A DNA stretch of 41,731 nucleotides, from NCBI GenBank assembly GCA_038256935.1, contig JBBSJV010000001.1, positions 1 to 41,731 of the forward strand. The letters are read 5' to 3'. Shown in pieces: positions 4,007 to 9,159 of the stretch (within the stretch, counting starts at the first letter, position 1; every line of letters begins with the position of its first letter). The position numbers and the translations under genes were made by a program. The notes beneath the pieces are model-generated. The model searched no databases. It had not been told where the DNA came from and saw only the letters and a program-made list of their open reading frames with translations. The stretch comes from Patescibacteria group bacterium (GTDB lineage Bacteria > Patescibacteriota > JACMRA01).

Positions 4007-5044
4007 ATGAATACCTACAGTAACTACAAACAAAAATATTTTGATTTTTTCATTGATAAATTTGGTTTCGAATCTGATCTTACTCCCCTTGAAATTGATT
4101 TTAAAAAGCCTTGGTGGCAGGTGCTGGTTGCTCAAAAATTTAAAGTGCTGATTGTGCTTTTTAGTGTGTTTTTAGATAATGGTTTTACACTTTTAGTACC
4201 GCTTGCTCTGGCTTATGCCTTATCTAGTCAATCTATTGATTATCTGTGGTATTTACTTTTTGCTTGGGCTGGAGTCAGTGTGTTTAGATTTATTACTTAT
4301 AGGTGGGAATTACTTTTGTATGGAGTGAGTGAATATAGTGTCAGAAAAGCGGCTAATCAGTTTTTCTTAACTGTAGATCCAAAGTATCATACTACCAAAG
4401 ACAGTGGACAAATTATCAGTAAAGTAGATCGTGGGGTAGGTGGGTATGAAAGGCTTTTGGATGTTGTTTTAATCAACCTATTTCCATTTTTCTCTCGCCT
4501 GCTTACAATTGTTTTTAGTCTGATTTGGATTGATTTGAGAATTGGCTTACTTTCTGCTCTAGTATTAACAATTTTATTAGTAATCAATACAATTATCACA
4601 ATATTTAACTCCGAAGCTTTTGAAGAAGGGTTGATCCCTTTATTTGATAAATCCAAAAGTGTGGAGCTAGAAAACCTGCAACAAAATCAGTTAATCAGAT
4701 CCACTTTTGCCACCCCAGAGCAACTCCAAAAATCCTCCTTTAGATTCAAAAAAGTAACTACCGCGATGATGGTTCAGTTTCAAACCTTTTTTGTCTGGAA
4801 TTTACTAATTAGAATTCTGTATGTGCTAGCCACAATCTTTATTACTTGGCTGATATTAGATAAAATCAATCAAGGAGAATTATCGACTGAAATTGCAATC
4901 GGAGCCATTATTACCTTTGTAAATTGATCTAGTGGGTTGCTATGGATAGGGACTCAAGTAAGAAGTTTTATTTCTTCCACGGTTAAAATCAATGATTTGT
5001 TTGAGTTTATTAGAGGGTTTGGGAAGCAGGGGTTTCCGGTTTAA
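4007..5044 (+). pseudogene. Decayed ABC exporter gene: transmembrane domain only, with an in-frame TGA at 4925-4927 and no nucleotide-binding domain
   Basis: Six-helix ABC_membrane-like sequence. The same frame continues after the TGA (SSGLLWIGTQVRSFISSTVKINDLFEFIRGFGKQGFPV) to a TAA at 5042-5044. This is the point where an NBD would normally begin. Repeats follow instead. Confidence 0.65.
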
Positions 5045-5067
5045 TTATTGATTCGGTGTAACTTCAA

Positions 5068-5248
5068 TGTCATCTCGAAGGCACTGAGAGATCCCATACG
5101 GTGGCTGGGTATAAATCAATTAAGGCGAAAAAAAACGTGGTGAACTTGTTTCAGTATATTTGAAAAAGTATCAACAAAAAATTAATGACCTTACTCTTGA
5201 ATTCAACCATGCAATACTAAGGGGTTTCTCGCTTTGCTCGAGATGACG
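5068..5248. repeat. Inverted pair of TGTCAT-stem-loop-ATCCC elements
   Basis: Left end TGTCATCTCGAAGGCACTGAGAGATCCC (5068-5095). Right end GGGGTTTCTCGCTTTGCTCGAGATGACG (5221-5248), in the opposite orientation. Confidence 0.75.
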
Positions 5249-5297
5249 GATGAGAATAATAAAATCTTAAACACTCAATATCTTAAGATTAGATTCT

Positions 5298-5345
5298 GGG
5301 AAGCCAGAGGCATACCTAGAAAACGGGAAGCCAGAGGCATACCCC
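5298..5345. repeat. Tandem direct repeat GGGAAGCCAGAGGCATACC x2 (27-bp period)
   Basis: Copies at 5298-5316 and 5325-5343. A related inverted copy, GGGGTATGCTTTAGCTTCCC, lies at 26048-26067. Confidence 0.7.
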
Positions 5346-5347
5346 TA

Positions 5348-6202
5348 CTAGAAAATTTTAACTAAAAAACCGCTCGGTAGTTTGATTCCTGATGCACAGT
5401 TTTGGACTATTTCAGCTACTTCTACTTTTTTGCCTTCAAATAATCTGGAGCAAAGGACTTCTAGTGTGATCGGGGTAAATCTTGGGGAGTGAAGAGTCAA
5501 AACCAACTTTCCATCTTGAGTTAAAAGATCCCTCGCTGTCTTTAGAAGGTTTAATAAATCATCTTCGATTTTAAAAACTTCCCCCTTGGTTCCACGGCCA
5601 AAACTTGGGGCATCGATCATGATTCCTGGGTATTTACTTTCTCTTCTTTGTTCTCTTGCTAAAAACTTATAAGCATCTTCCAGGATCAATCTTTGACCTT
5701 CACGGCTAAGCTCATTTTCAGCTAGATTATAGACATAAGTATCAATGGCACTTTTACTAGAATCCACTGCTGTGACTCTAAATCCAGCTTCTACCAAGCT
5801 TACGCAATTGCTTCCTGAATAGGTAAAGAGGTTTAAAACAGGCCCTGGTTTTCTAAAAAAATCTTTCAGACTAGGAGCATATGTCCAATGCTCTGTAAAG
5901 ACTCCGATATTTCCAAAATCATTAGGTTCGACTTGCCATTTTAATCCGTCATTTGACTCGATTATCCACTGGTGAGGCACTCCCATTCCTACAGCTTTAC
6001 GTTTGACACCATCTGGGACTTTGCGAGGGTGCCAGCTACCTTTTTCTCCAACCTCACGCACAAATTCACTATCGACATCAACCCACAGGCTAGGATCCAT
6101 TGGCTCCCATAGTGCTTGAGGGCAGGGACGGATGACTTTATAATCCCCTAGCATTTCCAGTTTTTGTTGATTACCACAATCCAGTAAAACGTATTTTGAC
6201 AT
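5348..6202 (-). CDS. Class I SAM-dependent methyltransferase, RlmI/RlmK-like (probable rRNA methyltransferase)
   Basis: SAM motif VLNLFTYSGSNCVSL..AGFRVTAVDSS, the catalytic-type motif IDAPSFGRG (compare DPPxF), and the tail GKLVLTLHS. Confidence 0.75.
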   Translation of the reverse strand: MSKYVLLDCGNQQKLEMLGDYKVIRPCPQALWEPMDPSLWVDVDSEFVREVGEKGSWHPRKVPDGVKRKAVGMGVPHQWIIESNDGLKWQVEPNDFGNIGVFTEHWTYAPSLKDFFRKPGPVLNLFTYSGSNCVSLVEAGFRVTAVDSSKSAIDTYVYNLAENELSREGQRLILEDAYKFLAREQRRESKYPGIMIDAPSFGRGTKGEVFKIEDDLLNLLKTARDLLTQDGKLVLTLHSPRFTPITLEVLCSRLFEGKKVEVAEIVQNCASGIKLPSGFLVKIF

Positions 6203-6270
6203 ATTATTATTTGATTAAATCAAGCTAAATAGAGCTTTGTATTATTGCTTTTGTCAAACTGTAAAAGCCA

Positions 6271-6675
6271 CTATAAAAACTCGACCTTAAATTCCTTTTC
6301 AAATTTTTTATACTCATGATCCAGAGTCAAGATTGGTAGTGAAAGTTTGTTTGATAAAATTAAGTTAAAGCAATCGATATAAGCAATTCCACCCCTATTC
6401 TTGAGCTTAGCTGCATTTATACAGTCTGCAGTTGAGTGAGTATGGATCTGAAGGTCGTAGATATTGACTAAATCATCGATAAAACTAGACACAATCTTTT
6501 CATTTCTATATCTACACCCAACAAAATATACTTCACCTAATATAAGATTTGAAATGTGTAGGTTTAGCTGACTATTAAAGGCTTGATTTAGTATTTTTTC
6601 CATTTTATTCGCCTGCTTATCACCATTTAAAAAACAAATTAAACTACAAGCATCCAAAATGTATTCCTTATTCAT
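6271..6675 (-). CDS. vapC: PIN-domain toxin VapC (start moved to the ATG at 6675, MNKEYILDACSLI)
   Basis: PIN acidic residues are present (ILDAC.., GEVYF, IDCFNL, LDHE). With this start the gene overlaps the antitoxin stop by 8 nt. Confidence 0.8.
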   Translation of the reverse strand: MNKEYILDACSLICFLNGDKQANKMEKILNQAFNSQLNLHISNLILGEVYFVGCRYRNEKIVSSFIDDLVNIYDLQIHTHSTADCINAAKLKNRGGIAYIDCFNLILSNKLSLPILTLDHEYKKFEKEFKVEFL

Positions 6676-6988: not shown

Positions 6989-7366
6989 TCAATTTGTACC
7001 CTCTTTTCTGTGTTTTCTCTTTAACTTCCAATATGCTTTATCATCGCCTTTTACAAGATCAGCTGGGTATTTGAGAGCTACTTTATCTAGCTTATCATTA
7101 ATTATCGTGCTAACATCCAGATCTAGTTTATCAGCCAGTTGCAGACAATAGATCATTACATCAGCAAGTTCTTCTCCGATATCTTGGAGTTTTTTGGGGC
7201 TAGCTTTAATCTCTTCCTTGCTAGGTTCAGACCACTGGAAATGTTCTAATAGTTCACCCGCTTCAATCGTGATCGACTTGACCAGTGAAGATGGGTTTAG
7301 ATTATCCCAGCCTCGTTCTTGTAAATGTTTTTGAATTCTTGTGATTAATTTGTGAATGTCGGACAT
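6989..7366 (-). CDS. MazG-like nucleoside triphosphate pyrophosphohydrolase (small all-alpha type)
   Basis: ITIEAGELLEHFQW ... EELADVMIYCLQLADKLDLD is a typical EExxE / ExxD MazG motif pair. Length 125 aa. Confidence 0.8.
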   Translation of the reverse strand: MSDIHKLITRIQKHLQERGWDNLNPSSLVKSITIEAGELLEHFQWSEPSKEEIKASPKKLQDIGEELADVMIYCLQLADKLDLDVSTIINDKLDKVALKYPADLVKGDDKAYWKLKRKHRKEGTN

Positions 7367-8541: not shown

Positions 8542-8562
8542 AAAAAAACCCGCGTTTGCGGG
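8542..8562 (-). terminator. Intrinsic terminator after tRNA-Arg(UCU)
   Basis: On the minus strand: CCCGC-AAAC-GCGGG followed by T7. Confidence 0.6.
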
Positions 8563-8580: not shown

Positions 8581-8657
8581 TGGTACAACCTACTGGATTC
8601 GAACCAGTGGCCCACAGCTTAGAAGGCTGTTGCTCTATCCAACTGAGCTAAGGTTGC
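8581..8657 (-). tRNA. tRNA-Arg (anticodon UCU), CCA encoded
   Basis: Hand fold: GCAACCT TA GCTC AGTTGGATA GAGC A ACAGC CTTCTAA GCTGT GGGCC ACTGG TTCGAAT CCAGT AGGTTGT A CCA. A20 is present. Confidence 0.9.
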
Positions 8658-8710
8658 ATGTATTTTTACTGTAAGAGATGCTTTAGTTATTGTAAAGGGG
8701 GGGGGTGAAG

Positions 8711-9081
8711 TTGGCGTTTAGCTAGTCTGGATCAAGTCCAGCCTGTTCTAGCTGGTACTTACGTACCTGCCTTTCTCTCAATCGCCGTGTGGCTCAAGTC
8801 GGGCCGCAATTCGGTTGGTTCATTCTGAACCTAGCACCCTAGCTCGCCGCATGGCATCGCCGTGTGGCTTTGGGATCGGAGCAAGTCCGATCTGTTCATG
8901 CTTAGCTTAGTACTTCTCTCAGTCGCCGTGAGGCTTGGGGCAAAATAAATTTGCCTGAGTTCTAGCTAATGCTTACGCATTTGCCTTTCTCTCAGTCGCC
9001 GTGAGGCTTGGGGCAAAATAAATTTGCCTGAGTTCTAGCTAATGCTTACGCATTTGCCTTTCTCTCAGTCGCCGTGAGGCT
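8711..9081 (-). repeat. Tandem array of five structured units (two identical 73-mers plus three diverged) filling the spacer between two tRNA-Arg genes; candidate ncRNA or processing modules
   Basis: Units on plus-strand coordinates: 8711-8795, 8796-8869, 8870-8935, 8936-9008, 9009-9081. All share TCGCCGTG(T/A)GGCT. Hairpin stems differ between units but stay paired. Confidence 0.8.
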
Positions 9082-9159
9082 TGGTGCAATCGGCAGGGAT
9101 CGAACCTGCGACCTTCTGGACCGCAACCAGATGCTCTAAATCCACTGAGCTACGACTGC
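9082..9159 (-). tRNA. tRNA-Arg (anticodon GCG), CCA encoded
   Basis: Hand fold: GCAGTCG TA GCTC AGTGGATTTA GAGC A TCTGG TTGCGGT CCAGA AGGTC GCAGG TTCGATC CCTGC CGATTGC A CCA. Confidence 0.85.

Follow-up and report, generated by a model that had tools for sequence, protein, structure and literature searches.

Patescibacteria (the Candidate Phyla Radiation, CPR) possess very small, streamlined genomes, yet some of them give many intergenic sites to arrays of folded 68-nt units. One such array lies on contig JBBSJV010000001.1 of assembly GCA_038256935.1, from a Patescibacteria group bacterium, of which positions 1 to 41,731 were analysed (hereafter, the window). It raises the question of why five structured repeats should stand head to tail between two tRNA-Arg genes, the first of them starting at the very next base after the tRNA-Arg(GCG) gene. 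The units are members of a previously undescribed family of modular structured repeats, 67–73 nt in length with a 103–104-nt variant, whose hosts are a clade of low-GC, Patescibacteria-like uncultured bacteria that carry them in head-to-tail arrays at dozens of intergenic sites. At this locus, the array is an accessory insertion that lies in the 3′ trailer of tRNA-Arg(GCG) and takes no part in tRNA maturation. More tentatively, with a probability that we put at roughly 0.45, the array is a non-autonomous, strand-specific, self-propagating structured repeat.

Along the minus strand, the locus reads tRNA-Arg(GCG), five units, a C9 tract, a promoter-like site, tRNA-Arg(UCU), and a terminator:

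9082–9159, minus strand: tRNA-Arg(GCG) with encoded CCA (ARAGORN; Rfam tRNA model, 65.9 bits; 78 of 78 bases the same in L119, a locus of a relative).
9009–9081, minus strand: unit 1, standard, 73 nt (fold of −22.9 kcal/mol, z = −3.0; covariance-model match of 30.4 bits), consisting of the head (9062–9081), hairpin B with a GUAA loop (9037–9058), GAAC (9032–9035), hairpin A (9012–9028), and the tail CCA (9009–9011).
8936–9008, minus strand: unit 2, an exact copy of unit 1 (repeat period 73, 99% matches; covariance-model match).
8870–8935, minus strand: unit 3, standard except that hairpin B is degraded; GAUCGGA/UCCGAUC forms hairpin A and CCAA the tail (covariance-model match of 42.6 bits).
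8795–8869, minus strand: unit 4, a truncated member of the long (103–104 nt) module type, as judged by alignment with long units; it contains the head, CGGCGAG, GCUAG, a GAA-loop hairpin, and AACCGAA.
8706–8794, minus strand: unit 5, a standard core (8722–8794, over which the covariance model matches with 47.4 bits) and a 16-nt tail foreign to the family; hairpin B is GGUAC-GUAA-GUACC, hairpin A CUGGA/UCCAG, and the unit's own tail CUAG.
8697–8705, minus strand: C9 tract at the distal end of the array (from the sequence).
8668–8696, minus strand: promoter-like site TTTACA-17-TACAGT for tRNA-Arg(UCU) (promoter scan).
8581–8657, minus strand: tRNA-Arg(UCU) (ARAGORN, Rfam).
8549–8562, minus strand: hairpin of an intrinsic terminator after tRNA-Arg(UCU), followed by a T-run.

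Every unit begins on the minus strand with AGCC(U/A)CACGGCGA. Exact copies of AGCCWCACGGCGA number five in the window, all on the minus strand (starts at 9081, 9008, 8935, 8869, and 8794), versus a chance expectation of 0.27, and none of 100 shuffles reaches five. An earlier sequence-only reading of this DNA had described a five-unit array between two tRNA-Arg genes that opens with two identical 73-mers, and both statements hold. ARAGORN and Rfam place the tRNA genes, the motif count is five, and units 9081–9009 and 9008–8936 are identical as assembled, with Tandem Repeats Finder reporting a period of 73, 2.4 copies, and 99% matches. The hairpins that it had drawn (AAUGC-GUAA-GCAUU, GGUAC-GUAA-GUACC, GGCAAA/UUUGCC, GAUCGGA/UCCGAUC, and CUGGA/UCCAG) do fold, and the array is GC-rich as it had stated (0.46–0.57 vs. 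approximately 0.33 in the flanks). Its unit borders are as described save one: unit 5 starts at 8794 and not at 8795, so unit 4 spans 8869–8795. Units 1 and 2 end in CCCA and unit 3 in CCAA. Unit 4, which the standard-unit model misses, can be aligned with long units of six further loci, and the alignment contains a hairpin with compensatory changes. The C9 tract is not general in the repeat family, other arrays ending differently, and the promoter-like site lies outside the repeat element and marks its distal limit. tRNA-Arg(UCU) probably has its own promoter, and transcription of tRNA-Arg(GCG), which meets no terminator before the array, probably reads through into the units. A coding repeat was rejected, as no open reading frame (ORF) of 32 or more amino acids crosses the array and none of the unit lengths (67, 68, and 73 nt) is divisible by three.

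Related units were sought in other genomes and found in abundance. A scan with AGCCNCACGGCGANTGAGAG, which demanded 18 exact bases and thereby missed divergent relatives, returned 83 stretches in public metagenome contigs and 27 in species-representative genomes. The matches at loci of 32–38% GC are all real units, usually in tandem with a period of 67–73 nt; lone matches in high-GC DNA all look like chance. Real units are carried by about 42 low-GC metagenome contigs, drawn from some 12 samples, and by 11 loci of a single metagenome-assembled genome (MAG; JBIKIW01), the array-bearing genomes being sampled as fragments (contigs) only. Arrays comprise 1–10 units, some 80-kb contigs hold four or five arrays, and on the best-sampled contigs the density is roughly one array per 10–20 kb. 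A covariance model trained on ten 67-nt units finds 176 matches in 581 kb, including window units 1, 2, 3, and 5, and the second, long module type occurs at several other loci, of which six were aligned. Tandem arrays of the same type thus recur in dozens of independent assemblies, and the array type is therefore not an assembly artefact.

None of this corresponds to a catalogued family. At gathering thresholds, Rfam recognized only tRNAs in the window and 13 further loci. When two arrays were compared by cmscan with all 4227 Rfam models using permissive filters, nothing but tRNA appeared at E ≤ 10, and the twister, twister-sister, pistol, and hatchet models gave no match. Literature searches on motif strings and on CPR structured repeats found nothing. 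A phage origin was rejected since the motif has no match in viral contigs.

The distribution of the family is uneven among hosts that are far apart. Proteins of the window and of the array-rich loci match at 30–52% identity at best, and yet the 20-nt head and the GAAC are identical; the array-rich loci themselves span species with orthologues 37–88% identical. No unit occurs in 88 kb of relatives whose enolase is 72–74% identical to that of the window. An identical head across divergent hosts, combined with patchy occurrence, implies that the family is patchy but old, horizontally spread, or both.

What has been conserved within the unit is a fixed entrance and, beyond it, the pairing of two variable hairpins. 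An invariant 20-nt head, AGCCNCACGGCGAYUGAGAG, containing an invariant GCC/GGC mini-hairpin, leads into hairpin B, in which a single bulged base on the 3′ side separates the lower from the upper stem and the loop is GNRA or GAA. A linker of (U/A)GAAC or CGAAA connects it to hairpin A, which has a GC-rich 6–7-bp stem and a U-rich loop (CUUUG, ACUUGYU, or AUUUAUU). When 40 units were aligned by MAFFT without regard to structure, RNAalifold recovered both hairpins, and 11 of the 14 pairs that it predicted contain compensatory changes. Among 133 distinct model-aligned units from many genomes, 89.7% of cells pair, compared to 29–39% when the partners are slid, and double changes occur in 13 of 17 pairs; such an alignment is biased towards the structure of its model, and the structure-blind one agrees with it. 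Double-change cells number 425 versus 132 ± 15 in shuffles, of which none in 500 reaches the observed value, although with many units related by descent these cell counts overstate the independent events. The column pairs with the highest mutual information are exactly the helices of hairpins A and B, and mutual information revealed no long-range or pseudoknot pairing beyond them in a scan that is uninformative for the invariant head. The covariation proposed by the sequence-only reading is hence real, and with compensatory changes in both hairpins across 133 distinct units it is much stronger than the five units had indicated.

The same alignments identify the folded strand. G-U and U-G cells outnumber A-C and C-A cells by 121 to 16 (47 to 16 after removal of one doubtful closing pair), and the GNRA loops can be read as GNRA on the motif strand only, which in the window is the strand of the tRNAs. 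It follows that the folded strand is the tRNA strand, in agreement with the earlier assignment. Chemically, the folded motif strand could be RNA or single-stranded DNA, and GCGAAGC, often seen at the apex, is also a DNA mini-hairpin of notable stability.

An invariant core accompanied by covarying helices is the classic signature of a functional RNA, and the specificity of the structure for the motif strand, GNRA loops included, and the conservation of the head across very divergent hosts point the same way. The units might thus be RNA modules that benefit their host, the main rival to self-propagation and a reading that we consider possible though doubtful. Arrays would be transcribed together with a tRNA, together with an mRNA, or alone, and would yield small RNAs of about 68 nt or structured 3′ trailers. 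An endoribonuclease recognizing the 20-nt head might cut the units apart, or the trailers might define or protect transcript ends, and the solo head with which many arrays terminate could complete the last unit in the manner of a CRISPR (clustered regularly interspaced short palindromic repeats) terminal repeat. Such head-only partial units at array ends are indeed frequent. The distribution of the arrays, set out below, bears on this reading in both directions.

The tails of the units deserve separate attention, as they gave rise to the proposal, made from the window alone, that the units are tRNA-like acceptor minihelices with CCA ends, serving as substrates or decoys for RNase P, RNase Z, or the CCA-adding enzyme. 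In window units 1–3, hairpin A is followed by CCCA or CCAA, and across the family CCA-type tails occur in 32 of 70 unit types. Tails are, more generally, short and of the YA(R) type (e.g., UAG, UAA, CA, and CAA). CUAG is the commonest single tail (20) and CUAA is found in 5, so that these two are about as common as the CCA type, and a conserved single-stranded NCCA end, by which a minihelix would be known, is lacking. Furthermore, the stems of hairpin A are 5–7 bp long and have no T-arm equivalent, most arrays are located away from tRNAs, and the tRNA models of ARAGORN and Rfam match only the two flanking tRNA genes in the window and no unit. Similarity of the units to either flanking tRNA does not rise above that of shuffles, which also excludes an rtT-like origin from a tRNA 3′ end. 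The decoy proposal therefore fails, and we regard it as most improbable. Adjacency to a tRNA combined with CCA-like tails can, as a caution, suggest tRNA mimicry where none exists.

A further observation concerns the relation between linker and tail. The GAAC on the 5′ side of hairpin A is position-wise complementary to the tail CTAG (G·C, A·T, A·A, C·G). GAAC is linked with CTAG or CTAA in 22 of 44 units and GAAA never with CTAG, a pattern that shared ancestry could explain. The guide and cleavage tetranucleotides of IS608 use the same kind of code.

Is the array needed where it stands? In L119, from a relative with about 75% protein identity to the window (same sample as L001), an identical tRNA-Arg(GCG) is followed by a 103-nt AT-rich spacer and tRNA-Arg(UCU), with no unit. 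Only the promoter segment before tRNA-Arg(UCU) aligns between this spacer and the 424-nt spacer of the window. As this tRNA pair exists without units, the window array is accessory, and the absence of an array at the orthologous tRNA site of a relative also speaks against a host-beneficial RNA. At a second site, the intergenic region of a divergent PGM/ftsZ pair measures 108 nt and is empty in L116 ("TTTGTCAA tataaac TTGACA") versus 1044 nt with units in L088, where the units begin directly after TTTGTCAA; the L088 insert also holds other sequence and is not a clean single-unit event. Conversely, at an apparently orthologous site in two related species (L005 and L086), an array is present in both and the first units are similar, which favours a function for the host.

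L088 is one of the loci of MAG JBIKIW01 (L086–L111), which is titled "Limisphaerales bacterium", has about 35% GC, and has the PGM–ftsZ neighbourhood in common with L116/L117, contigs whose enolase is 72% identical to that of the window. Because FtsZ of L088 is 82% identical to that of L116, JBIKIW01 is probably a Patescibacteria-like relative, and its taxonomic label is doubtful.

The genes that flank 78 arrays are mutually unrelated and include no recurrent family. The gene on the 5′ side of the array is encoded on the opposite strand in 43 cases but shares the strand of the array in 16; of the arrays between co-directional genes, 19 are antisense and 7 sense. Most arrays have no tRNA nearby. 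Nonetheless, within loci selected for containing units, a unit starts 0–1 nt after the CCA of eight tRNA genes, which represent at least six species (Gln, Ala, Lys, Val, Arg-CCU, and Arg-GCG). Together with the unit-free tRNA pair of the relative, this lends partial support to the earlier idea of insertion at tRNA 3′ ends. Units placed exactly after the CCA of so many tRNA species are also an argument for host-beneficial RNA modules, against which stand the unrelated neighbours and the fact that most arrays are not co-oriented with the gene upstream.

At their 5′ side, many arrays adjoin a promoter-like sequence of the other strand. In 24 of 67 distinct 5′ flanks, the array is flush with TTGNCA on the other strand, about 35–60 nt from a divergent start codon, and matches to TATAAT on that strand peak at a spacer of 17, with at least four matches in 10 of the 24 flanks versus about 4 at other spacings. 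L046 presents a clear case, where the junction TTGACA, an 18-nt spacer, TATATT, and a short gap form a promoter-like site that leads into a divergent tRNA gene. Such edges are found, for example, at L046 about 7200–7258, L088 4813–4870, and L116 2585–2615. On the strand of the units themselves, no enrichment of −10 elements was seen 7–13 nt upstream of the arrays, and a sigma-70 promoter of their own starting at the first unit was rejected, since this signal is missing and the junction TTGTCAA is better read as an opposite-strand −35 box. The abutment on divergent −35 boxes, without a same-strand −10 signal at a suitable distance, further weakens the case for host-beneficial RNA modules. That arrays stop exactly at the −35 hexamer may reflect target preference, deletion bias, or co-option.

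These edges could mean that the function resides in the DNA or the opposite strand, with the arrays acting as insulator or terminator blocks before the next −35 box or as protein-binding repeats upstream of promoters. The flush TTGACA edges with their −10 peak, the excess of antisense over sense arrays between co-directional genes, and the reverse complement of GAAAA-class units, in which a hairpin is followed by UUUUC as in a terminator, would all be accommodated. The main GAAC class, however, provides no U-tract on the other strand, and the G-U pairs and GNRA loops favour the motif strand. The arrays adjacent to tRNAs, that of the window included, lie in the sense orientation, and no plus-strand gene reads into the window array. 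We therefore judge this explanation very unlikely.

The two ends of an array differ strikingly. The 5′ start is a precise YA(R)–AGCC junction, in which the YA(R) comes from a tRNA (its CCA end), from a −35 box (its outer edge), or from the preceding unit (its tail). The 3′ border is ragged. In multi-unit arrays, the first unit is complete in 37 of 37 cases and middle units in 30 of 32, compared to only 17 of 37 last units, which also have more mismatches in the head than other units; intact units thus lie 5′-most, with truncated or decayed copies at the 3′ end. The window displays the polarity of the family, with its two identical units beside the tRNA and the aberrant or diverged ones distal.

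Two flanking sequences recur. In eight loci (L006, L008, L035, L050, L057, L065, L072, and L081), the truncated last unit gives way to a conserved GTCATTGCTTCTCTTGTTTCAGGATCTC segment. Two explanations of this segment were tried and dropped: an opposite-strand gene terminating there, for want of a long ORF, and pairing back onto the head, which gave no stable fold. A shared stretch of 45 nt or more that closes with GGGGTGGTGGTGTAG precedes the arrays in L007 (minus strand), L052 (plus strand), and L061 (minus strand), where the sequences downstream are wholly different. This flank is either the end of a multi-copy gene or a sign that arrays are sites of rearrangement or assembly chimerism.

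In sum, the array is accessory at its site in the window, the family is patchily distributed, and its arrays are dispersed beside unrelated genes in either orientation, with a precise 5′ junction and decaying 3′ ends. A self-propagating repeat would account for this behaviour as follows. New units would be seeded or duplicated at the 5′ side of the array, and the tail of each unit would recreate the YA(R) junction for the next. A postulated trans-acting factor would read the invariant head, and the hairpins would be kept because the motif strand, in its single-stranded form, must fold to be recognized. That folded form may be read-through RNA from a tRNA gene, or single-stranded DNA during propagation. 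We also count as support that array-rich genomes contain GTAG-tagged hairpins like those of repetitive extragenic palindromes (REPs), as well as other repeat modules.

A number of considerations weigh against self-propagation. Identity of the head across lineages with 30–52% protein identity is no less expected of a conserved host function than of a selfish element, and the GNRA loops and G-U excess are RNA-type features. The arrays are direct tandems that have neither terminal inverted repeats nor target duplications, unlike REPs or miniature inverted-repeat transposable elements. Among the 499 ORFs of the array-rich loci, no multi-copy transposase- or reverse transcriptase-like gene was found. 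Neither a clean single-unit insertion polymorphism nor a polymorphic orthologous array came to light, homologous locus pairs being 100% identical, same-population duplicates. Finally, deletion bias in streamlined genomes could by itself set any retained element flush with its neighbours.

A further reading, which we think unlikely, makes the units RNA-level replicators or catalysts, either a novel small self-cleaving (or self-ligating) RNA or a small RNA copied by a reverse transcriptase. In the latter version, the reverse transcriptase would switch templates end to end at CCA-like 3′ ends, and head-to-tail RNA concatemers would have been copied into DNA to give the genomic arrays and the tRNA-CCA(+0/1 nt)–unit junctions. 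This would explain the precise 5′ border, the occasional extra purine at the junction, and the composition of n full units plus one truncated unit.

Distinctly unlikely, in our view, is a new class of small ribozyme in which every unit would cleave itself at its 5′ border and so liberate the 3′ end of the upstream tRNA and unit-length RNAs. The size of about 68 nt, the conserved junction purines, the variable helices, the tandem arrangement, and the location of the first unit 0–1 nt after a tRNA CCA would suit such an activity, and the succession of stem, YUGAGAG, hairpin, GAA, hairpin, and border recalls a type I hammerhead. A hammerhead core runs CUGANGA, stem II, GAA, stem III, and then an H where cleavage occurs, and its junction is closed by stem I. 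The strand of the units reads YUGAGAG, which lacks G8 and A9, and GAAC, and no Rfam hammerhead model matches at E ≤ 10; a hammerhead was accordingly rejected. The fold of the hepatitis delta virus (HDV) ribozyme type is a nested double pseudoknot (P1, P1.1, P2, P3, and P4) with a catalytic C in J4/2 that cleaves at its own 5′ end. An HDV-like or theta ribozyme finds no support either, as no HDV-family model of Rfam matches and the sequences give no sign of pairings beyond hairpins B and A, such that the nested pseudoknot is unsupported. No ribozyme model of any kind was matched by the two arrays at E ≤ 10, and many arrays have no obvious promoter. Ribozymes 3′ of tRNAs do have a precedent in the HDV-like theta ribozymes downstream of phage tRNAs (PMC10879173).

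Several observations on the host genomes were made in passing. Array-rich genomes contain long non-coding stretches of other repeat modules (L097 6750–7600, L103 480–1000, L067 7400–7900, L005 1400–1560, and the flank of the minus-strand array in L107). These include GTAG-tagged, REP-like hairpins in both orientations, for example GTAGCGGCGACCTCCGCGTCGCCAT, an AT-rich AAAATTATAAATGGTTAATGG block, and a module of about 150 nt that runs GATTCCCGTCGCCTGGT...CCCCGGGTGGGACTTTACT; none has a match in Rfam. In L097, a chorismate synthase ORF (4958–6643, minus strand) is apparently split by a GNAT acetyltransferase domain, with Acetyltransf_3 between two Chorismate_synt stretches. The proteins of the window include an enolase 64–68% identical to those of named Patescibacteria and Gracilibacteria, T4SS-pilin genes, and many family-less ORFs. 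Contigs of its closest relatives break at or beside the two tRNA-Arg genes (L001 1–40, L118 1–20, and L120 1–5), which may reflect repeats or low coverage. The CGN-decoding tRNA-Arg has the anticodon GCG and not ACG in the window (9082–9159, minus strand) as well as in L119 (156–233) and L120 (5–82). The usual bacterial anticodon for this tRNA is ACG, normally deaminated to ICG. The retention of GCG in two relatives hints that CGN decoding may need no TadA-type editing here.

The significance of the family depends on which reading is correct. If it is a selfish repeat, it represents a new kind of structured repeat with a highly sequence-specific propagation machinery; if it is a functional RNA, it represents a new and abundant small-RNA or processing system in a major uncultured radiation. 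In either case, it offers a clean covariance model, clear junction rules, and at least two comparisons of filled and empty sites, and is thus directly testable.

Among known systems, the rtT repeats of the E. coli tyrT operon bear comparison, being tandem, transcribed downstream of a tRNA gene, and in possession of a tRNA 3′ segment; the present units differ in having no similarity to tRNA. ToxI arrays consist of tandem RNA units of about 36 nt upstream of one toxin gene and are cut to monomers by a dedicated endoribonuclease. The arrays described here are instead dispersed beside unrelated genes, and a ToxI-like type III toxin–antitoxin array was rejected because the genes flanking the 78 arrays include no recurrent family and the neighbours of the window array are rsmH and an xseB-like gene. 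The resemblance to CRISPR lies in the period of 67–73 nt with slight variation in length, the alternation of a conserved 20-nt "repeat" with a variable part, the partial or degenerate terminal repeat, and the 5′-to-3′ polarity of intactness. The differences are that many arrays exist per genome, beside unrelated genes, and that the "spacers" are two hairpins of conserved architecture whose variants recur across loci and genomes, where CRISPR has unique, unstructured spacers acquired from foreign DNA, on which grounds a CRISPR array was rejected. No Cas-like protein was seen among the scanned ORFs of the window and no cas context at the arrays, whose neighbours are mutually unrelated, no dedicated Cas profile search being made.

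Theta ribozymes downstream of phage tRNAs (PMC10879173) are likewise structured RNAs of similar size directly after a tRNA 3′ end. The present units, in contrast, are tandem and multi-copy, mostly not beside tRNAs, absent from viral contigs, and devoid of an HDV-type double pseudoknot. Miniature elements derived from IS200/IS605 (PATEs) and other HUH-nuclease single-stranded DNA elements (PMC6006769) are similar in that they are strand-specific, have subterminal hairpins, lack inverted repeats and target duplications, and, as here, insert 3′ of a short sequence; the complementarity of GAAC, 5′ of the right-hand hairpin, to the CTAG tail extends the likeness. Measured against the plan of such an element, with hairpins near both ends, a guide tetranucleotide before each, and insertion 3′ of a fixed tetranucleotide, the fit is loose at the right end (GAAC, hairpin A, and CTAG), and at the left end the hairpin is 1 nt from the border, which leaves no room for a left guide. 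Tails and junction tetramers are, moreover, heterogeneous in the present family, and tandem arrays are the rule. No TnpA was found among the 499 ORFs, which were not searched by profile.

A further parallel is offered by REPs and the bacterial interspersed mosaic elements (BIMEs) built from them, GTAG- or CGTC-tagged palindromes that are mobilized by RAYT/TnpA-REP (PMC3733652, PMC2817692, PMC3479197). In such systems the genome has a RAYT (Y1 HUH) gene with the repeats on either side; none was identified among the 499 ORFs of the genome fragments, which contain no multi-copy protein family and were examined without a Y1 transposase profile search. Membership in REP/BIME was itself rejected, because the unit is 67–73 nt long, has three hairpins, and starts with AGCC, and the GTAG-tagged hairpins of the same genomes are a separate family. 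A REP is a single 20–40-bp palindrome, in contrast to 67–73 nt with three hairpins and a 20-nt invariant head; REPs alternate in orientation, whereas the present units run directly head to tail with no GTAG tag at the unit head, and that head is shared by hosts that diverge from one another much more than the hosts of a REP class usually do. What both have in common is that they are high-copy, lineage-specific, intergenic, patchy, and GC-rich relative to their surroundings, and that they consist of stem-loops with compensatory changes, arranged in composite clusters, with a conserved tag beside the hairpin.

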